A stretch of DNA of 64,000 bases, from NCBI GenBank assembly GCA_964603935.1, contig CAZRWL010000002.1:9210-73209 (forward strand), read 5' to 3'. The notes under the pieces were generated by a model. That model was given only the letters and a program-made list of their open reading frames with translations, ran no database searches and was not told the DNA's origin. This DNA comes from an uncultured Gammaproteobacteria bacterium (lineage in GTDB: Bacteria; Patescibacteriota; Microgenomatia; Levybacterales; UBA12049). Made by a program: the position numbers and the translations under genes. Shown one piece after another: positions 1,587 to 61,552 of the stretch. How positions within the stretch are numbered: position 1 is the stretch's first letter; each line of letters opens with the position of its first letter.

Positions 1587-3187
1587 CTTAAACCTCCAAT
1601 AGAATATAAACGAACATTAGTCTTATCATTATAATAAATTAAATCCCAAAACCTAAACCTCTCGGGCAATTCCCCTTCTTGAACAGCTATGTAATTAAAT
1701 GCATTTCCCTTTTTAACATAGGAGGAATCTATAAATGGAAAATCGACATAATAAAGATTATGGAAACCATACAGCAAAACTTTGTCGTCTGTCTTAATAT
1801 TATCTTCGAAGTAATTGTCGGTGTCGTAAAAATCTCCGAATGAAAAATTTAAATGGCTTGAAAGGAATTGCGACTTAGATTCTTTTCCTAGGATAACCGG
1901 AATATATTTTGAATTAGCGACTCCCCTATAAAATATTGAGAACAATGCGAAAGCAATAATTGCCCCAACAAAAAGAAAACGTAATTTCACTTGTCCAATT
2001 TTTTCAATAATCGCAACGCTTACTATGGAAAAAGCAGGCAAGTAAGGCAGAATGAATCTTCCTCCCCCTGTATGCGGAGTTATCTGCCATACCACAATCG
2101 CAATAAAAGAATATAGCGATATTACCTTTAAAGGTAGTTTCAATTTTCCATAAAGGAATACCGCTAATGGTAGAGATATGACGTATAGAGGAGAGATGGG
2201 ATCTGGAAGATTTAAAGGGTTAATTAAGCCAAAATTAAACTTTGCAGGATAAATATTTGTGAAAAAGGGATGTATAGGATTTCCAGTATTAATAAAAGCA
2301 AAAACAAGCCACGAAAAAACAATAAATAACGCAATAATCCAATAACTCAATAATCTATTAAATACTGTTTTTATTTCCTCCTTTTTACTAAAAGCAATAT
2401 AAACAATTAATATCGAAAAAATCAAAAACGATCCTAATGCCAAGAGTTTAGTAGATATTGCAAAACCAAGCATTACTGCCGACAAAATAAACCATTTCTT
2501 TTTCTTTTTTTCAAACCATTCTATAAATCCCCATAATGCCATTATTTCAAAAAATGTTCTAGCTAAATCTATGTAAGCAGTTATTGACATCCAACCGACA
2601 ACCAAATTTGAATAGAAAAGAACAACCGCTAATAAAGAGAATACTCTCGATAAAAACTTGCGCGAAAGTTTATAAAGAGCAATCAGAGACAGAATTCCGA
2701 AAGAAAAATGAATAAATTTTGGAATAGTTTCGCTTCCAAATGCTAGCCCTGCCGCATATAGCATTTCCGTAAGTTTTGGCATTGCCGAATAATACAGAAG
2801 CCCTCCGGGAATATAAGATATAGAATGGTTTTGAAGGTAAATTTTGGGCAACGCTAAGTGATACCATAATGCGTCAAACGCCAATTCCGGACCCAATACT
2901 CCAACAAGGTTAACCAAAACCTGCAACATCAACATTAGACTTAACATGATTAAAGTAATATTCTGCCTTATGCTTTCAAACGTAAAATGCCTAAACTCGA
3001 AGCGCTTCTTAAATTCACTAAAGCATTGAAAAAGCTTATCCGTAAATGTTTTTTTATAAAAATAGAAGATAGTGAAAATATAAAAAATTGTAGTCCCAAC
3101 GATATAATTCCTATAGAAAAGTCCGGCAAGACCCAAAGCAAAAAGAAAATATGAGTAAATTCCTATCAGAAGCGCCAAAGTAAACAT
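1574..3187 (-). CDS. Polytopic membrane protein, putative GT-C type glycosyltransferase
   Basis: 537 aa, more than 12 hydrophobic helices, ELAFDALWYH loop near the N-terminus. No soluble catalytic domain recognised. Confidence 0.6.
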   Translation of the reverse strand: MFTLALLIGIYSYFLFALGLAGLFYRNYIVGTTIFYIFTIFYFYKKTFTDKLFQCFSEFKKRFEFRHFTFESIRQNITLIMLSLMLMLQVLVNLVGVLGPELAFDALWYHLALPKIYLQNHSISYIPGGLLYYSAMPKLTEMLYAAGLAFGSETIPKFIHFSFGILSLIALYKLSRKFLSRVFSLLAVVLFYSNLVVGWMSITAYIDLARTFFEIMALWGFIEWFEKKKKKWFILSAVMLGFAISTKLLALGSFLIFSILIVYIAFSKKEEIKTVFNRLLSYWIIALFIVFSWLVFAFINTGNPIHPFFTNIYPAKFNFGLINPLNLPDPISPLYVISLPLAVFLYGKLKLPLKVISLYSFIAIVVWQITPHTGGGRFILPYLPAFSIVSVAIIEKIGQVKLRFLFVGAIIAFALFSIFYRGVANSKYIPVILGKESKSQFLSSHLNFSFGDFYDTDNYFEDNIKTDDKVLLYGFHNLYYVDFPFIDSSYVKKGNAFNYIAVQEGELPERFRFWDLIYYNDKTNVRLYSIGGLRWVY

Positions 3188-3259
3188 CTTTAGTTTTTAA
3201 GCTCAATAAATTATACTTAGACTTATTATATTCTAAACCGATTTTATTTAAAAGATTAG

Positions 3260-5623
3260 ATGAAAACCATCAAATTCAAGCCTATAATTTTCCTGTTATT
3301 TCTCTGCATAGTTTTCTTTTACAAAATATTTGCAAATTCAGATCACACCCTTTACCCCGCACTGGACAATATTTACTCATCTTCTCAAGAAAAATCTCTA
3401 TTTTCATATAGTGTCTATACCCACAGAGATCTTCCCCTTTGGAATCCTTATGTTTTCAGCGGTTCTCCATTTGTAGGAAATCCTACTTCCGCAATGTTTT
3501 ATCCTCTAAATATTTTATTTCTTCTGTTTCAAGCAAATCTTTCTTTTAGCTATATGTTCGCTCTTGATGTTTTCCTGATTGGATTATTTACTTATGTATA
3601 TTGCAGGGCTATAAAAATGGATAAATTTGGTTCTTTGATTTCTGCAATTACCATCATGTTTAGCGGTCCGTTAATCACAATGGTCTTCCCGGGACATCTT
3701 CAAAATTTTAACACGTTTATCTGGTTTCCTTTAGCGCTTTTATTTGCGGAGTTAATGATAATAAAGAAAAGCTTAACGTTTTCCATGTTGCTGGGTATTA
3801 CTATCGCCTTTATGCTTATTGCAGGGATTATACAAATTGCAATCTATGAAATTATATCTTTAATTATATATTTTACGCTTAGGTCTGCGTTTGAAATTAA
3901 AAGCTTACCCACAGCTATAAAACTAGCTTTTCTTCTTGGGATTTCTTTTCTTACAGGAGTTTCTATCGCAGCTATTCAATTGATGCCAGGCATAGAATTT
4001 TCCAGTCTTTCAGAAAGAGGCGATGGGCTAAGCTATATTTTTGCATCTGATTTCTCAGTCAATCCCCGTCAAGTCATTTCTTCTATTTTTCCTTATTTCT
4101 TTGGCTCACCCATCAACTCGACCTACTGGGGAAAAGGAAATTTTTGGGAATCGACCCTGTACGTTGGGATTCTGCCTCTATTTTTCGCAATTTCCTCAAT
4201 AATACTCAGAAGAAATCGTTATGTTTTAATTTTCTCAATCATCGGGATCGTTGCGTTAATTTATTCTTTTGGTAAATACGGCCCGATTTTTCCTTTCCTA
4301 TACGGTCATATTCCCGGCTTTGATCACTTCAGAGTAGCAGGCCGTTTTCGTTACGTATATGTATTTTCACTTTCTATTCTTGCGGGATTTGGAATTAATT
4401 TCCTACTGTACAATTTTAAAAATAAATTAAAACATTTATTTCTCAAATTTTCAGTTACCATCCCTGCAATAATACTTACATTTATTATTTTTCTTTTATT
4501 TCTTGCTCCTAGCAAATTTAACGTATCTGTCTACGAAAAATATGTGCTTCGAAATAGTTTTGCTATGGGAATAAATCACACGACTCTATACAATCAAACA
4601 AAAGCAGATATTATAGTTTTTCTGACAATTATATTGGCTTTATATTTAGCAATAGTTTTAAAAACCAAAAAAATAATCGGATTAAATCAGTTAAAAGTTT
4701 TTATTGTTTTTGTCTGTATCTTGGATTTATGGTTATTCGGCTCAAGATTTATCGCTACAAAAAATATAAAAGAAATTTACAAACCAACACCTATAATAAA
4801 CCGGCTGATAAGCAACGGGCCTATCTATAGAGTTTTTGACATGGGAGGAGATTATATACCGCTTCTTGGTGAATATAAAATAGAAAGCATAACAGGCGTT
4901 CATCCTCTGTATTTAAAGGATTACCGAGATTTTATTTGGTCTATTGGAAAACATGCAAATACACCTTATGAATCATCTTTTCAAATAAATGAAATTTTCC
5001 ACCCAATATTTCTAAACTTATTAAATGTGAAATACGTAATTTCAAATAATAAAATATCCCTGCATGGATTCTCAGAAGTACTGAATTCAAATTCTACTGT
5101 CACATACGGTATTCAACCTAACCTTACACGCTATTTGTATGAGAACAGCAATTCGCTGCCTAGAGCATATATTGTTCCTAATGCTGTAGTTGTGCCGGAC
5201 AAGAAAAAAATATTAAATTTGCTTTCAAACAACGGCTTTAATTCAAAAAAATATATTCTTTTAGAAAAAAAATCGTTAAATATTCAGCTTGAGAACAACT
5301 CCTCTTTTGAAGAAATCAATGTAGATAGAAGTTCTTTTAATAAAATTCATTTATCGGTAAAAATGAAGGGGAGCGGTTTTTTGGTCTTAAGCGAAATTGC
5401 ATATCCGGGCTGGAAAGCTTTCATCAACAAAAAGGAAGTAGAAATATTAAAAGCTAACAATATTTTAAGATCGATATATTTAACATCCGGTCTTCACAAC
5501 GTAGACTTTATTTACGACCCCGATTCCTACACGGTTGGAAAATATATTTCGCTTACCGCGCTTTCTGCAATTAGCATGTTTTTCATAATTAAAGGTTTAA
5601 TTGCTTTTGTAAATCGTAACTAG
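3260..5623 (+). CDS. Large YfhO-like polytopic membrane protein with C-terminal extracytoplasmic domain (putative glycosyl/lipid transferase)
   Basis: 787 aa. The N-terminal ~450 aa are densely hydrophobic, with NPYVFSGSPFVGNPTSAMFYP as in the YfhO family. A C-terminal ~300 aa soluble domain follows. Confidence 0.6.
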   Translation: MKTIKFKPIIFLLFLCIVFFYKIFANSDHTLYPALDNIYSSSQEKSLFSYSVYTHRDLPLWNPYVFSGSPFVGNPTSAMFYPLNILFLLFQANLSFSYMFALDVFLIGLFTYVYCRAIKMDKFGSLISAITIMFSGPLITMVFPGHLQNFNTFIWFPLALLFAELMIIKKSLTFSMLLGITIAFMLIAGIIQIAIYEIISLIIYFTLRSAFEIKSLPTAIKLAFLLGISFLTGVSIAAIQLMPGIEFSSLSERGDGLSYIFASDFSVNPRQVISSIFPYFFGSPINSTYWGKGNFWESTLYVGILPLFFAISSIILRRNRYVLIFSIIGIVALIYSFGKYGPIFPFLYGHIPGFDHFRVAGRFRYVYVFSLSILAGFGINFLLYNFKNKLKHLFLKFSVTIPAIILTFIIFLLFLAPSKFNVSVYEKYVLRNSFAMGINHTTLYNQTKADIIVFLTIILALYLAIVLKTKKIIGLNQLKVFIVFVCILDLWLFGSRFIATKNIKEIYKPTPIINRLISNGPIYRVFDMGGDYIPLLGEYKIESITGVHPLYLKDYRDFIWSIGKHANTPYESSFQINEIFHPIFLNLLNVKYVISNNKISLHGFSEVLNSNSTVTYGIQPNLTRYLYENSNSLPRAYIVPNAVVVPDKKKILNLLSNNGFNSKKYILLEKKSLNIQLENNSSFEEINVDRSSFNKIHLSVKMKGSGFLVLSEIAYPGWKAFINKKEVEILKANNILRSIYLTSGLHNVDFIYDPDSYTVGKYISLTALSAISMFFIIKGLIAFVNRN

Positions 5624-24738: not shown

Positions 24739-24740
24739 AG

Positions 24741-24812
24741 TGGACCCGAGAGGACTCGAACCTCTGACTTCTTCAATGTGAATGAAGCGTTCTACCGCTG
24801 AACCACGGGTCC
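24741..24812 (-). tRNA. tRNA-Val (anticodon CAC)
   Basis: The reverse complement is GGACCCGTGGTTCAGCGGTAGAACGCTTCATTCACATTGAAGAAGTCAGAGGTTCGAGTCCTCTCGGGTCCA. It has a 7-bp acceptor stem, D-loop AGCGGTAGA, anticodon loop TTCACAT and GTTCGAGTC in the T-loop. CCA is not encoded. Confidence 0.9.
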
Positions 24813-46762: not shown

Positions 46763-48097
46763 TCAACTAACTTTCTTTATATCTGCTCCCAAACTCTTAA
46801 GTCTTTCTTCGAATTTTTCATATCCCCTGTCTAAGTGCTCTGCCCCAAAAATAACGCTTTCTCCCTTTGCTACTAATCCTGCCAATACGAGAGTTGCCCC
46901 TGCTCTCAAATCGGATATTTCAACAACGCCGTTATGTAATTTTGAAGGACCGGATATTTTTATTGCGTGAAAATAATCCAGATTCCGATCCTTAAGGTTA
47001 AAATTATAGACTCTTTCAGGATTCTTGACATCGGGATTGAAGAATGAAATATTAGCTCCCATTTTTTTAAGCTCCTTTACATAGCCAAAACGGCTTTCGT
47101 AAACTGTTTCGTGTATCAAAGACACGCCTTTTGCCTGCGTCATAAGAACAGCCCATGGACCTTGCCAATCTGTCATAAATCCAGGGTAATTTGACGTCTC
47201 AACATCAACGCCCGCCAACTCTCCTTTGTGGAAAAATCTTATTCCGTCCCTGCTCCTCGTTACTCCTCCTCCGACCAACTCAAGTCTTTGAATAAACGGC
47301 GAAAGATCAACATTCTGCGCACCTTTAATAAGCACATCTCCTTTTGTAATAACCGCTGCTATTGCCAAAGTAACAATTTCATTTCTGTCCGGCCCTATTG
47401 CAAATTCGGTTCCCATTAGCCTATCCACTCCATGTATGACAACTGTTCTTTCCTCTGTTCTTAGGATTTTAGCTCCCATCTGATTCAGGAGATTGATAAG
47501 CTCATCAACTTCAGGCTCTGCAGCAGCATTTTCCAATATTGTTTTCGTATCCTTCAGAAGTACCGCAACCATAATCAATGTTTCCGTACCCGTATGCGTG
47601 CTTTTTTCAAATTTATAGCATATTTCTTTTCTCCTTGAATTATCATTTCTTTTAAGGTAAAAAAAACCATCATTTCTTTTATACGAAACCGAATAGCCCA
47701 TTTTTTCAAGACCCTTTATTGTTCTGTCTATTGGCCTTGCGCCTATTCTGCATCCGCCGGGATTTGGAATAACTGCTTTTCCCACACGAGCTAATAACGG
47801 AGATAGAAACATAGCTGAAGTTCTTATTTTTGCAGCATCAATCAATGAAATTCTCTCCTTTTTAAATTGCTTCATACGGATACGCACAGCATGATCCGCA
47901 ATTTCTGCTTTTCCGCCTAATTCTCTTATTATCGCGATCATCACCATAAAATCAGAGATAAGAGGAACATTTTTTATAATCACTTCTTCGTCTGTCAGAC
48001 ATGCAGCAACCAAAGCTTTTAGAGCAACGTTTTTTGCCCCTGAAACCCCAATTGTGCCCACCAGCTTCTTCTCCCCGCTTACCATTATCTTTCCCAT
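46763..48097 (-). CDS. murA: UDP-N-acetylglucosamine 1-carboxyvinyltransferase MurA
   Basis: KLVGTIGVSGAKNVALKALVAACL N-terminus and EPSP-synthase-like fold length. Confidence 0.85.
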   Translation of the reverse strand: MGKIMVSGEKKLVGTIGVSGAKNVALKALVAACLTDEEVIIKNVPLISDFMVMIAIIRELGGKAEIADHAVRIRMKQFKKERISLIDAAKIRTSAMFLSPLLARVGKAVIPNPGGCRIGARPIDRTIKGLEKMGYSVSYKRNDGFFYLKRNDNSRRKEICYKFEKSTHTGTETLIMVAVLLKDTKTILENAAAEPEVDELINLLNQMGAKILRTEERTVVIHGVDRLMGTEFAIGPDRNEIVTLAIAAVITKGDVLIKGAQNVDLSPFIQRLELVGGGVTRSRDGIRFFHKGELAGVDVETSNYPGFMTDWQGPWAVLMTQAKGVSLIHETVYESRFGYVKELKKMGANISFFNPDVKNPERVYNFNLKDRNLDYFHAIKISGPSKLHNGVVEISDLRAGATLVLAGLVAKGESVIFGAEHLDRGYEKFEERLKSLGADIKKVS

Positions 48098-55011: not shown

Positions 55012-56319
55012 TCAAATTAATTTTTTGTGAATACTAGAAGCTATATCTTTTATTTTTATTCTTTCTTGCTTCATAGTGTCTCTATCACGAATAGTAACCG
55101 TACCATCTTCCAATGTTTGAAAATCAACAGTCACGCAAAATGGTGTACCAACTTCATCTTGGGCAAAGTATCTTTTTCCGATATTTCCCCTTCCATCATA
55201 AACTGTTGCAAAATTCTTTCTTAACTCCTGATAAATTGTTTTTGCCTTTTCAACAAGTTCCGGCTTATTTGCAAGAAGCGGAAAAACTGCTGCTTTGTAT
55301 GGAGCGAGCTTGGGATGAAGCCTAAGTACAATTCTTTTTTCCTCTTCGCAATATGAATCAAGAAGAAATACCAGCATTGCGCGGCCTACACCAACAGATG
55401 GTTCTATAACATAAGGTAAATATCTTTTCTGTGTTACTTCATCAAAATACGAAAGGTCTTTTCCGGAATATTTTGAATGTTGGAATAAATCATAATCTCC
55501 CCTATTCGCAATCCCTTCAAGCTCTCCAAAATCCATAAATGGCCACTTGTACCAGATTTCCGAGGTTCCCTTTGAATAATGAGCCAGATCTTCTTTTGGT
55601 AAATCAATTATTTTTATATTTTCTTTTTTTATTCCTAAAGATAAATACCATTCTAATCTTTCTTTTTTCCAATACTCATGCCATTTTACACCTTCATCGG
55701 GTTTTACAAAAAACTCAAGCTCCATCATTTCAAACTCCCGAACTCTAAACAAAAAATTACCGGTTGTGATTTCATTTCTAAAACCCTTTCCGATTTGCGC
55801 GATTCCAAAGGGAATATTAATCCTTGTTGAGTCTAAAACGTTTTTGAAATTTATAAAAATTCCCTGCGCAGTTTCAGGACGAAGATAGGTTTTGTTTTCC
55901 TCATTATCAATCGGCCCGACATACGTTTTAAACATCAGATTAAATTGTTTTGTATCTGTCCATGAAGATTCCTTATGCTGCTGTCCATGGATTTTAATTT
56001 CTTCTTTATGATCGGCCCTAAACCTCTGATGACAAATCCTACACTCAACCAAAGGATCGGTAAAGGAGGTTATGTGGCCTGATGCTTCCCATACTTTAGT
56101 GCTATGTAGTACTGAAGAATCAAGGGGAACTATATCGTCGCGGGAACTCACAATGCTTTTCCACCATTCATCTTTTATATTATTAGCAAGCCGTACCCCC
56201 AAAGGACCTAAATCCCACGTGCCACTTAATCCTCCGTAGATTTCAGACCCTGGGAATATAAAACCCCGCCTTTTGCACAGAGCCGTAATCTTATCCATCA
56301 AATTCGAAGATGAATCCAT
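55012..56319 (-). CDS. glyQS: Glycine--tRNA ligase (dimeric class II GlyRS)
   Basis: GFIFPGSEIYGGLSGTWDLGPLG N-terminal signature. Confidence 0.85.
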   Translation of the reverse strand: MDSSSNLMDKITALCKRRGFIFPGSEIYGGLSGTWDLGPLGVRLANNIKDEWWKSIVSSRDDIVPLDSSVLHSTKVWEASGHITSFTDPLVECRICHQRFRADHKEEIKIHGQQHKESSWTDTKQFNLMFKTYVGPIDNEENKTYLRPETAQGIFINFKNVLDSTRINIPFGIAQIGKGFRNEITTGNFLFRVREFEMMELEFFVKPDEGVKWHEYWKKERLEWYLSLGIKKENIKIIDLPKEDLAHYSKGTSEIWYKWPFMDFGELEGIANRGDYDLFQHSKYSGKDLSYFDEVTQKRYLPYVIEPSVGVGRAMLVFLLDSYCEEEKRIVLRLHPKLAPYKAAVFPLLANKPELVEKAKTIYQELRKNFATVYDGRGNIGKRYFAQDEVGTPFCVTVDFQTLEDGTVTIRDRDTMKQERIKIKDIASSIHKKLI

Positions 56320-56365
56320 TATCTAAATTATATCACAAAAAATTTTAAACAATTTTCCTTCAAAT

Positions 56366-56384
56366 CATCCACCCTTCGGGTGGA
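56366..56384. repeat. REP-like hairpin ATCCACCC-ttc-GGGTGGAT (8-bp stem), 21 nt downstream of the Y1 transposase gene
   Basis: Perfect palindrome read from the sequence. The core CACCCTTCGGGTG recurs as its reverse complement at 57129-57141. Confidence 0.6.
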
Positions 56385-56404
56385 TTACATTGGCACATCT
56401 CCTT

Positions 56405-57082
56405 TTAATCATCTATTGCTAGGTGCTCTATTTGCTCAAGCTCTTTCATGTAGCCCACTTGATCCATAACAAACTGCCTATATTTCTCTTTCGATGAAAA
56501 CATATCTAAAACTAGTTTTTTATCTGCAACATCATTGAAAGAATTTCCCACATATTCAGGATAGGATGACCACTGATAATCTTCCAACTGTTCCGGTTTT
56601 ATCAAAAATGATGACACTGGATTTAAATGTATATATCTTGATACATGCATTAGCTGCTCGTCCGATTCGACTCTGACTGCCTTAAATGGACCTTGAAATA
56701 AAGAGCCAACCCGTTCATGCTTGGTATTAAAATACTTTGTATAGCTATTGGTAAAATTAGCTGCAAAAATTGAAACTCCATTTTCCCTTATCTGTTTGAC
56801 TAAGAAATGGAAATGGTTAGGCATCAAACAATAGCAAAGAATCTCTACTAATTTTTGGTTTTCGCCATGGATTTTTTTAACGAACTCCATTCTTTCAGAT
56901 TCGGGAAGCACCATAAACTTAGATAATTTAAGAGGTAAATTTGCAAACCTATAAAAATCAAGCGTTCTTATTCCCCTATCCAATTCCCTTTTATCTGTAA
57001 AAGTAGGTCTTTTCTCAACTCCACGATTAAAGATATGGTAAACTTCGCCGTTTGCAAAAATGCATTTCCTATTAGTAGGCAT
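56405..57082 (-). CDS. HuH Y1 tyrosine transposase of the IS200/RAYT (COG1943) family, full length
   Basis: YHIFNRGVEKRPTF (beta1), YCLMPNHFHFLV (HuH), SRYIHLNPV (catalytic Tyr region). The ORF track start of 57121 is probably too far upstream; the internal Met at 57082 is preferred. Confidence 0.7.
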   Translation of the reverse strand: MPTNRKCIFANGEVYHIFNRGVEKRPTFTDKRELDRGIRTLDFYRFANLPLKLSKFMVLPESERMEFVKKIHGENQKLVEILCYCLMPNHFHFLVKQIRENGVSIFAANFTNSYTKYFNTKHERVGSLFQGPFKAVRVESDEQLMHVSRYIHLNPVSSFLIKPEQLEDYQWSSYPEYVGNSFNDVADKKLVLDMFSSKEKYRQFVMDQVGYMKELEQIEHLAIDD

Positions 57083-57707
57083 ATCTAATTCTAGATTACA
57101 GAAAAAAAGGAGATGTGTCAAGCTAAACCACCCGAAGGGTGAATATGAACAATTTTTATTGACTATGGATTTTTATCGTAAAAATCCACTGCCGGCAAAG
57201 CTTTCGGACTTCAAAAGAGGAATGGAAAAAGCTAAAAAGATCGAAAATCAAATTAATTTAGTAGAAATTTATTGTTACTGTTTAATGCCCAATCATTTTC
57301 ATTTCTTGTTAAGGCAAAACGCAGATGGTGGCATAACAAACTTCTTAAGAAAATTCGCAAATAGTTATACCAGATATTTTAATACAAAGTACGATCGCAT
57401 TGGACCTCTTTTTCAGGGCACATTTAAGGCTAAACTTATTGAAAATGATGCATATTTATTGCAGGTATCAAAGTATATTCATCGAAACCCCTTAAAGTTA
57501 AGTAACTGCATGTTACGTTCTTACCCTTATTCCTCATACAGCTATTACTTATCTGAAGATAAACATCCTTTCTGTAATGCGGAATTTATTTTATCTTATT
57601 TTTCAAGAACTATTCCCAACTTAAGCTACCAATCATTCGTAGAAGAAACTGAAATTGAAAGTCCAGAAATTTATAGCCTGCTTATAGATCCTGACGAAGA
57701 AGAGTAA
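57060..57707 (+). CDS. Second, divergent Y1 transposase-like gene lacking the N-terminal beta-strand region (probably truncated or degenerate). Likely true start is MDFYRK at ~57165.
   Basis: YCYCLMPNHFHFLL and SKYIHRNPL are conserved. The region homologous to the first ~45 aa of the paralog is absent, and the REP hairpin lies in the putative 5' region. Confidence 0.55.
   Translation: MHFLLVGISNSRLQKKRRCVKLNHPKGEYEQFLLTMDFYRKNPLPAKLSDFKRGMEKAKKIENQINLVEIYCYCLMPNHFHFLLRQNADGGITNFLRKFANSYTRYFNTKYDRIGPLFQGTFKAKLIENDAYLLQVSKYIHRNPLKLSNCMLRSYPYSSYSYYLSEDKHPFCNAEFILSYFSRTIPNLSYQSFVEETEIESPEIYSLLIDPDEEE
57127..57142. repeat. REP-like hairpin core CACCC-gaa-GGGTG, the inverted copy of the 56366-56384 element
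   Basis: ACCACCCGAAGGGTGA is the reverse complement of the core at 56369-56381. Confidence 0.55.
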
Positions 57708-57732
57708 ATTTTCTATGTTTTGCGTTCGTGCT

Positions 57733-57769
57733 CCCACATGGAATGTGGGAAACTAAATGTGGGAAACTA
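57733..57769. repeat. Hairpin CCCACAT-gga-ATGTGGG overlapping a tandem direct repeat ATGTGGGAAACTA x2
   Basis: 57733-57749 palindrome. 13-nt units at 57743-57755 and 57757-57769. Confidence 0.5.
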
Positions 57770-57793
57770 CGAGAATAGCTATATAAACGCAAT

Positions 57794-58486
57794 TCACTCA
57801 TATCCTATACTGCGAAGGTAAGCTCCCACAACTCTTTCCCGCCTATAAATAAGTCCGTTGTGCGTCTTGAGAAGAAATATACCCGTATTGTAACGAGGGG
57901 GTAACTCTCTAACAAGGAATTTACCCGCAGCTATTGTGAAAGGAGCATCCTGATTCATGGTAAAAATTATTTTATCAGTAAAACTTCGCTTATGAATCTT
58001 ATGCGCTAAAAATAACGCTTTTAGAGGGTTCTTTGGTCGCATTTTTAACGCATCAAAAAAAGACCCTTCCGCTCTACAAACATAATCAACAGGAACTATA
58101 TGGTAATGTTGTCCTCGGATTTTTGTAACTCTATGTAGCTCAACTATTGTTCGCTCCAAGTCATCGATATGTTCTAAAGCATGAATAGATACTACTTTAT
58201 CAAAAGTATCGTTTGCAAAGGGGAGATTTTCAGCATTTGCAATAGCTACTTTAGCATTTGGGCTCCTTAATTGCGCTGAATTTACTGCTTGCGGATCATT
58301 ATCAACTCCATACACGTGTGGAGTGAATTGAGAAAGGTAGGAGAGAAATTCTCCATTTCCTACTCCAATTTCCAATACTTTATCGCTTGGTTTAATTTGC
58401 AAACGTCTATCAAACCTTTCGTAAATTGTTCTAGGAATTCTCCTACTTTGCGCTTCCGCATAAGATTTATCTCTTAGAATTTCCAT
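57794..58486 (-). CDS. Class I SAM-dependent methyltransferase
   Basis: VLEIGVGNGEFLSYL ... VVSIHALEHIDD. Confidence 0.8.
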   Translation of the reverse strand: MEILRDKSYAEAQSRRIPRTIYERFDRRLQIKPSDKVLEIGVGNGEFLSYLSQFTPHVYGVDNDPQAVNSAQLRSPNAKVAIANAENLPFANDTFDKVVSIHALEHIDDLERTIVELHRVTKIRGQHYHIVPVDYVCRAEGSFFDALKMRPKNPLKALFLAHKIHKRSFTDKIIFTMNQDAPFTIAAGKFLVRELPPRYNTGIFLLKTHNGLIYRRERVVGAYLRSIGYE

Positions 58487-61513: not shown

Positions 61514-61552
61514 CTATTTATCATAAGCAAAAAGTCTAACCCATGTCAAATA

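Follow-up and report, generated by a model that had tools for sequence, protein, structure and literature searches.

Two RAYT-like genes of probable TIRtron type in a Patescibacteria genome, one intact and one 5′-truncated at the hairpin of the other

Subclass 2.1 is the second largest of the TnpAY1 family of HuH/Y1 nucleases, behind the IS200-type subclass 1.1. Its members are characterized by the motifs NH[YF]H (or NHVH), FQ (or W[EQ]) and Y[IV]HLNP / YIELNP with a proximal SS tail, by a median length of 238 amino acids (aa) and by a distal helix-turn-helix (HTH)-like domain (Bac_DnaA_C, HTH_23, HTH_28), and they are mainly proteobacterial (PMC6006769). Quentin et al. (2018) equate this subclass with group 1 of the REP-associated tyrosine transposases (RAYT) and with most TIRYT proteins, and structures resembling repetitive extragenic palindromes (REP) were not found by them next to subclass 2.1 genes (PMC6006769). 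RAYT group 1 has been described in Proteobacteria and Clostridia (Bertels 2017, PMC5581495). A RAYT-like TIRYT gene flanked by terminal inverted repeats, some of them with the motif GGGGWSAS at a constant spacing, is known as a TIRtron (Di Nocera 2013, PMC3733652), and the IS200 proteins of subclass 1.1 have the Tyr motif Y---Q and a core-only length of ~150 aa (PMC6006769). No experimental work on subclass 2.1 or TIRYT nucleases turned up in literature searches. The present analysis concerns two head-to-head genes of this kind, designated A and B, in a 64-kb stretch of DNA (the window; contig CAZRWL010000002.1, positions 9,210 to 73,209) from a metagenome-assembled genome, estimated at ~1 Mb, of Candidatus Levybacteria in the Patescibacteria (candidate phyla radiation, CPR).

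The locus consists of two RAYT-like genes, probably of TIRtron type, of which the first is intact and the second 5′-truncated at the hairpin of the first; within the sequence searched it is neither a REP system nor a classical IS200. In the explanation that we consider probable, each gene is the core of a TIRtron, that is, a RAYT-like HuH/Y1 nuclease gene (subclass 2.1, RAYT group 1) between its own repeats, and B was brought to A by a rearrangement and disabled. The TIRtron arrangement itself is known but poorly understood; new here is the example in CPR bacteria. Statements on copy number refer to the window, and loci of relatives are numbered in the style L001, the wider sample being 80 metagenomic loci with 44–80% protein identity. 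The A/B arrangement recurred in four sequencing runs of a single study, where it lies on short contigs.

The two genes and their repeats

Gene A is intact, and its product contains CYCLMPNHFHFL and RYIHLNP, with NHFH, LFQG, YIHLNP and WSSY all recognizable; an NCBI entry with the name "transposase [Candidatus Levybacteria bacterium]" has exactly the same sequence. Orthologues with 60–81% identity are all 223–227 aa long, and residues N89, H90, H92, G131, Y150, I151, H152 and N154 (A numbering), as well as S173, were invariant in 59 homologues. Both gene products pass the Pfam Y1_Tnp cutoff of 23 bits (A, 33.3 bits; B, 37 bits), and both remain under the equivalog cutoff of 80 bits of NCBIfam NF047646 REP_Tyr_transpos (49.3 and 45.9 bits, respectively). 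A single-sequence search of A against PDB gave no match at E ≤ 1, and a profile search gave ISDra2 TnpA alone (E = 0.08), ranked under a spurious latrotoxin match; since these searches were uninformative, a fold search was needed. With the AlphaFold2 model of A (pLDDT 88.4; β1 at residues 14–21), the top PDB fold in Foldseek was 4er8_A, E. coli TnpAREP with a REP hairpin (E = 4.5e-8, 211 columns, probability 1.00, TM (target) 0.64), and the IS608 and ISDra2 transposases ranked behind it at E ~1e-4. The prediction made originally from the DNA letters, that the proteins are RAYT-like and not classical IS200 transposases, is in agreement with YIH(L/R)NP, the length of 225 aa and 4ER8 as the top fold.

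The likeness to subclass 2.1 lies in NHFH, LFQG, YIHLNP and the SS tail of A, and in NHFH, LFQG and YIHRNP of B. When length and tail were compared with that subclass, A had 225 aa (median there 238) and the WSSY motif, and an HTH domain was not found in it by Pfam. A longer relative of 322 aa (L024), 34% identical to A, has a weak C-terminal HTH match (HTH_24). The CPR clade looks like a short form of subclass 2.1.

On the plus strand, an open reading frame (ORF) at 57060–57707 (215 aa) matches A from residue 26 on, with 54% identity over 127 aa (E = 6e-42), and it has no internal stop codon. The head-to-head pair with HuH and Tyr motifs kept in both genes and a full-length minus-strand copy, all noted originally, were thus present. 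Orthologues of the B lineage are 214–218 aa long and begin with MxNPPFxxGxYYHIYNRGVEKRNIFIGKRDYQQFLL. The homology of B to their DNA begins at 57139, inside the outer arm of the upstream hairpin of A, and upstream of this position lie the A repeat and the A start region; a GTG(A) microhomology at the junction is common to both partners. Because the ORF start is unrelated to the orthologues and the DNA homology starts at 57139, the loss of β1 is real. About 26 N-terminal codons are missing, together with the promoter and the upstream hairpin, so that the N-terminal truncation proposed for the plus-strand copy held. An alternative start that would give B a full N-terminus was rejected, the in-frame extension to 57060 being without similarity to the N-terminus of the orthologues.

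As the original prediction had advised, fuller versions of B were sought in relatives, and the orthologues in L005, L006, L129 and L131 proved to be full length, with the upstream extension present and ATG, GTG or TTG starts. Five B orthologues (P0123, P0129, P0132, P0135 and P0139) have public calls of 179–180 aa. Three were checked (P0123, P0132 and P0139, at L006 3077, L129 721 and L131 571); all had been called from an internal ATG, and since their DNA encodes a complete N-terminus that begins with GTG or TTG, the short versions result from faulty annotation. An old truncation shared by the B lineage was rejected accordingly.

Codon changes on the B lineage were 34 synonymous and 5 non-synonymous, similar to the 40/7 of the intact L005 copy. 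The truncation is therefore recent relative to the branch, or else the remnant is still under selection; beyond the 5′ loss, nothing of the decay suggested originally is visible. B is most likely a recently disabled copy.

A repeat search of the window revealed a 40-nt inverted repeat whose arms, 88% complementary to each other, enclose gene A exactly, from just past its stop codon to 22 nt before its ATG (Table 1). The two hairpins pointed out originally are the cores of this repeat, which had itself been missed. The first, for which a DNA fold of −7.4 kcal/mol (z = −3.5) was calculated, has the 8-bp stem that had been described and lies 19 nt, not 21 nt, from the A stop codon. Its core recurs in inverted orientation 5′ of A, as stated, here with 5 bp and a fold of −3.9 kcal/mol. 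The TTGACAC of the upstream arm supplies a perfect −35 hexamer, TTGACA, 34 nt before the A ATG. At the downstream hairpin no T tract was present, and a consensus signal scan did not flag it. Counted in the window, the 13-mer of the A hairpin occurs twice versus 0.26 expected (4 of 100 shuffles reach two), and the 7 GC-rich perfect hairpins compare with 3–9 in shuffles, which is no enrichment; as these counts alone are near chance, the significance of the hairpins rests on their conservation in orthologues. A candidate third copy of the 40-nt repeat at 47329–47345 (2 mismatches to 17 nt) was rejected as a chance match inside a long coding ORF, with no hairpin, and no Rfam match at E ≤ 1 was obtained in 56000–58000.

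In A orthologues (L042, L045–47 and L048; 68–80% identity) the upstream layout is hairpin-nCTAGC-TTGACAC-15/16 nt-TATAAT/TAATAT-ATG, and downstream AAAGGAcAgGTGCCAACGTAAT and a hairpin follow the stop codon, the same layout being found in L049–L056; the conserved flank motif does not continue beyond the hairpins. Changes of the stem affect both ends alike: where the window has CCACCC/GGGTGG, L042 and L045 have CCACCT/AGGTGG. At the same time the half-site is always TTGACAC upstream (57115–57121 in the window) and TTGGCAC downstream, a fixed one-base difference. Such a fixed difference next to stems that change together argues for selection on both copies and against plain homogenization.

The 57732 hairpin belongs to B. 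The full-length B genes (L005, L006, L129 and L131) each carry their own repeat pair and none stands next to an A gene. Their upstream repeat, CTCCCAC-TTGACAA-GTGGGAG-CAC, has TTGACA as part of its loop and precedes the start by ~30 nt, and the downstream repeat, GTGCTCCCACAT-GGA/TCC-ATGTGGGA (also written GTG-CTCCCACAT-GGA/TCC-ATGTGGGA), lies just past the stop codon. The repeat of the window is conserved directly after the stop of the B orthologues (L005 4559–4582 and L006 3749–3772), and homology between B genomes ends immediately past the 3′ hairpin. Since full-length orthologues carry such a repeat after their stop codon, this palindrome, which folds at ~−7 kcal/mol (z −3.1) and occurs once in the window, is the 3′ repeat of the B lineage itself and not a second copy of the A motif, as had been supposed. 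A tandem repeat had been reported next to it, and both features are there, the repeat unit being a 14-mer rather than a 13-mer.

Table 1. Features of the A/B locus and other positions in the window.
Feature	Position	Strand	Description
Gene A	56405–57082	minus	225-aa HuH/Y1 nuclease gene, intact; fits TnpAY1 subclass 2.1 / RAYT group 1
Gene A repeat, downstream arm	56367–56406		8-bp hairpin, 4-nt spacer, half-site, CATCTCCTTTT reaching into stop codon
Hairpin 1	56367–56385		ATCCACCC-TTC-GGGTGGAT, 8-bp stem
Half-site of downstream arm	56390–56396	plus	TTGGCAC
Gene A repeat, upstream arm	57105–57144	read on minus	Weakened hairpin, spacer TTTAGC, TTGACAC (57121 to 57115)
Hairpin 2	57129–57141		CACCC-GAA-GGGTG; stem 57129–57133 / 57137–57141, loop 57134–57136, 5 bp
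B/A-repeat junction	57139–57142		GTG(A) microhomology
Gene B	57139–57707	plus	5′-truncated copy, second paralog lineage; first in-frame ATG in homologous part 57165 (180 aa)
B downstream repeat	57728–57752		GTGC-TCCCACAT-GGA-ATGTGGGA-A
Hairpin 3	57732–57750		TCCCACAT-GGA-ATGTGGGA, 8-bp stem
Tandem duplication	57742–57769	plus	Exact 2 × 14 nt, AATGTGGGAAACTA: last loop base, outer hairpin arm, adjoining outer flank
Glycyl-tRNA synthetase (GlyRS) gene	55012–56319		435 aa
Methyltransferase gene	57794–58486		Class I, S-adenosylmethionine-dependent (Methyltransf_11)
Empty Bac_transf/DUF4012 site	61514–61552		40-nt spacer
tRNA-Val gene	24740–24812

Hairpins and half-sites in related loci

The module of the relatives consists of one gene and two flanking hairpins with few or no extra copies, and paired hairpins of this kind were observed at most of the ~75 loci examined for them; in the sample of 80 loci, most genes are flanked by GC-rich hairpins on both sides. 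Lineages have different stems, which match within a locus (CCACCT, CAACCT, ACACCC, TCACACACC, CCCAC and others); the median longest common substring of the repeats is 10 within a locus versus 7 between loci, and a match of at least 12 nt was found in 29 of 70 loci versus 2% of cross-pairs. In 41 aligned repeats, a 7-bp helix was paired in 90.6% of cells, a percentage inflated by the anchoring of the alignment on the hairpins, and double changes were seen at 4 of the 7 pairs; the covariation score was 0.225, compared with 0.110 ± 0.017 in shuffled alignments (0 of 500 shuffles as high). The association of hairpins with Y1 genes holds across 44–80% identity. The family is large, with at least 503 clusters (50% identity) at E ≤ 1e-30 and 8,385 at E ≤ 1e-10.

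Upstream of the genes in L056, L061, L062, L048 and L065, a long symmetric palindrome was observed, GGTGYCAA-6 nt-hairpin-6 nt-TTGRCACC, of which the A clade keeps the gene-proximal half-site alone. The exact motif GGGGWSAS of TIRYT genes is not in the A repeat, which reads ATGTGYCAA in the window and GGTGYCAA in orthologues. The longer relatives L021 (no HTH match) and L032 (sub-threshold Bac_DnaA_C) are flanked by GGGGTCAM, which fits the published motif. The resemblance of the CPR half-site GGTGYCAA to GGGGWSAS is suggestive only.

On the half-site strand, the hairpin is preceded by GTAA/CTAA in the window (56386–56389 and 57122–57127) and by GTAG in L048U, L055U and L056D; these feet come near the GT[AG]G of canonical REPs. 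The strict GT[AG]G foot is absent in the window, where TGTA precedes ATCCACCC (GTAA one base from the 6-bp core) and GCTAAA precedes CCACCC.

The tandem duplication beside B is an instance of a recurrent feature. Exact head-to-tail duplications of outer flank, outer arm and 0–3 loop bases (12–18 nt) were found at 13 of 138 Y1-gene flanks, versus 1 of 138 for the mirror-image (inner) type. They are located in the window, at both ends in L050, L054 and L070, downstream in L053 and L106 and upstream in L071, L093, L100 and L123, with a further example at L048 672–715, and the junction is always in or next to the loop. The loop of the B 3′ hairpin reads GGA in the window (57740–57742) and in L005 (4571–4573) and TCC in L006 (3761–3763), with identical arms. 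With the loop flipped between B orthologues and, across the family, about as many genes with equally oriented as with oppositely oriented loops at their two ends, hairpin orientation appears uncoupled from the flanks. Outer-arm duplications and loop flips alike suggest DNA transactions with the loop of the hairpin at their centre.

Two Y1 genes were present in the fetched stretch in the window and in L048 only (2 of 96 loci, 623 kb surveyed), and the copies are divergent in both. Those of L048 (1–644 and 6001–6681) lie 5 kb apart on the same strand with hairpin variants of their own, CCACCC-TCC-AGGTGG and TCACCT-CGA-AGGTGA.

Origin of the pair and competing explanations

Gene A has the mem150/RecO block on one side and GlyRS on the other in the window, L045–47, L052 and L053, and the syntenic A is 78% identical, like RecO (78%) and DUF4012 (80%). 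The kept synteny and the housekeeping-like divergence indicate that A behaves as a vertically inherited resident gene. In L042/L049, an A gene with 80% identity has unrelated surroundings. The two genes of the window are old paralogs, with 54% identity to each other and 80–88% orthologues of each elsewhere, and the four other B loci examined have no A neighbour; the duplicated pair of the original prediction is thus not a local duplication. The five B loci represent four contexts, with one site common to L006 and L131. At this site, between Bac_transf and DUF4012, a B-type unit is present in L006 (~3021–3852) and L131 (~485–1270), and the same site is empty in L045 and in the window, where the truncated B lies 4 kb away. 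In L006 the left junction of the filled site is clear after TGTCAA, and ~80 nt of unmatched DNA lies past its 3′ hairpin, where L131 differs. A simple insertion of A into B was rejected, since A adjoins the conserved GlyRS gene on its other side and nothing left over from B was seen there.

In the most likely history of the pair, A would be ancestral at the site and B, with its 3′ repeat, would have been joined to the outer foot of the A upstream hairpin by a deletion or rearrangement using 3–4 nt of microhomology. The event would have removed the B promoter, the upstream repeat and the first 26 codons, and would have weakened the A upstream hairpin to 5 bp. The break may have been made by the A nuclease, or the hairpin may merely have stimulated illegitimate recombination.

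In the TIRtron explanation, each repeat combines a short GC-rich hairpin with a TTGRCAC half-site. By analogy with TnpAREP and REPs, and with IS608 TnpA and the ends of its element, the protein would recognize its own hairpins as folded single-stranded DNA, and it may be able to cleave and rejoin DNA near them. The −35 box lies in or directly beside the upstream repeat, so that a protein bound to this repeat would also autoregulate its gene; occupancy would repress the promoter, as in many insertion sequences with a promoter in the terminal repeat. Movement would be rare, with A behaving like a resident gene.

The features shared with TIRtrons and TIRYT genes are the terminal inverted repeats (40 nt for A), the low copy number and the divergent paralogs with their own repeats. 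The differences are the host, belonging to the Patescibacteria, a 25–30 aa insertion in the protein after helix A, and the CPR repeat, which has a perfect GC-rich hairpin and a GGTGYCAA half-site instead of GGGGWSAS. Several observations weigh against the TIRtron explanation or parts of it. The C-terminal HTH tail that has been described for subclass 2.1.1 was not found in A by Pfam. We infer the link between protein and hairpin solely from the covariation of the hairpins with the gene lineage. The −10 box of the A promoter in the window, TAATCT, is weak and was not flagged by the consensus promoter scan, and the consensus scan scored the A upstream hairpin as terminator-like on the minus strand. 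Loop orientation at the two ends of one gene was the same in 24 loci and flipped in 29 (L049–L128), and with orientation of loops and repeats varying in this manner one uniform mechanism may not apply. B is without relaxed selection (34 synonymous to 5 non-synonymous changes) and without an internal stop codon, and it may have been truncated very recently or still be in use. Finally, a small repeat family may exist elsewhere in the ~1-Mb genome, of which 64 kb were searched, some relatives (L124 and L121) having 1–2 orphan hairpins.

That the hairpins are a dispersed REP family spread by A and/or B, with the gene in a REPtron, as the original prediction had proposed, appears improbable to us. 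The locus does resemble the REPtron of E. coli TnpAREP (subclass 2.2, REP/BIME; 4ER8, PMC3479197) in its class 2 proteins with HuH and Y---NP, in the closest fold, in a gene between inverted hairpins and in a cognate hairpin for each paralog, and the GTAA/CTAA feet of the window and the GTAG feet of some relatives are near GT[AG]G. Orphan cognate hairpins between unrelated genes were observed at L124 6299 and 7051 (around a nuclease-like gene) and L121 1889 (before uvrA), and they indicate a small local repeat family in some genomes. What is missing is dispersal: the A hairpin had no extra copies in the window beyond the two flanks of A, the B hairpin had none beyond its single occurrence, and the sole intergenic GC-rich perfect hairpins (stem ≥ 6 bp) are the two beside the Y1 genes, the total of such hairpins equalling the shuffle expectation. 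In ~329 kb around relatives, searched for cognate hairpins by regex matching, most loci had exactly two, with 13 extra matches, several of them with 5-nt arms. Further differences from a REPtron are the strict foot that is lacking, the NCBIfam score of 49 bits for a cutoff of 80, a protein 60 aa longer and the subclass 2.1 reported without REPs (PMC6006769). A REP-type population for A or B is not supported within the sequence searched. It is likewise unlikely, if somewhat less so, that A and B are insertion sequences of the IS200-like type, autonomous and currently active, and the truncated B a by-product of transposition. Like IS608 and ISDra2 (IS200/IS605 TnpA, subclass 1.1), they have the HuH/Y1 fold and form a compact unit (~780 bp) bounded by subterminal hairpins, and relocation is indicated to some extent by B in four contexts at 80–88% identity with one filled/empty site and by the 80%-identical A in another context. 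The B breakpoint at the foot of the A hairpin and the exact outer-arm duplications, suggestive of recent DNA processing at hairpins, fit as well, and about half of the family has its hairpins as direct copies on one strand, as in IS200/IS605 (for example L078, L091 and L061). On the other side, neither the window nor the 96 loci contained an identical or near-identical second Y1 copy, protein clusters sit on 1–4 contigs each, and A keeps its synteny and diverges at the rate of the neighbouring housekeeping genes. The proteins have Y---NP and not Y---Q, 225 and not ~150 aa, and neither A nor B has a tnpB-like ORF beside it. Of the marks by which an ordinary insertion sequence was to be recognized according to the original prediction, the confinement of the hairpin motif to two sites was found within the window, and the canonical IS200/IS605 ends were not, the A repeats being inverted and not direct.

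There is, in our estimate, very little chance that the hairpins are ordinary transcription signals, acting upstream as terminator or insulator and downstream as terminator or mRNA stabilizer independently of the protein, with gene conversion keeping them similar. Both hairpins lie at gene boundaries, the terminator-like score of the upstream hairpin on the minus strand would suit such a role, and a −35 box is found next to the hairpin (A) or inside it (B). The downstream A hairpin, however, has no T tract, and none of the other genes in the window is accompanied by a hairpin of this kind. At both ends, moreover, the repeat continues past the hairpin and includes a conserved TTGRCAC half-site, the fixed difference between TTGACAC and TTGGCAC beside stems that change together disagrees with plain homogenization, and the association with Y1 genes persists across 44–80% identity.

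Implications and neighbouring genes

It may further be, although we hold this to be doubtful, that the CPR genes are an undescribed and very diverse TIRtron clade whose hairpins are processed in vivo at the loop and not at the foot as in IS200/RAYT. The outer-arm duplications, the free loop flips and the B breakpoint at the A hairpin foot would be footprints of this processing. If so, the nuclease would nick or resolve hairpins in a manner closer to rolling-circle or parvoviral Rep proteins, and the A–B junction would record one such event.

The CPR clade is an unusually clean natural experiment: its genes number in the hundreds, occur in single copy and each come with a half-site and a short, perfectly defined hairpin pair of their own, and its pairs of protein and DNA specificity could serve to predict and test recognition rules. 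The window adds a dated accident, in which one paralog was cut exactly at the hairpin of the other, and an outer-arm duplication that may report the position of cleavage. For annotation, "transposase" calls of this kind in CPR genomes are not IS200 copies, and several "180-aa" orthologues are mis-started full-length genes.

The methyltransferase gene listed in Table 1 is located between the truncated B and the mem150 gene. Since it is absent from the syntenic region of L045, B plus methyltransferase constitutes an insertion relative to that locus. On the other side of A, the GlyRS of the window is 52% identical to the syntenic GlyRS of L045 (6828–8228, 466 aa, with a GlyRS_ins_1 match), and the nearby RecO, DUF4012 and Bac_transf are 78–87% identical to their L045 counterparts; the GlyRS gene of the window may represent a gene replacement or a different form of the enzyme. 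The G+C content of the window is 0.29–0.34 in the first 24 kb and 0.34–0.40 (mostly 0.37–0.40) in 24–54 kb, with the step in composition near tRNA-Val.

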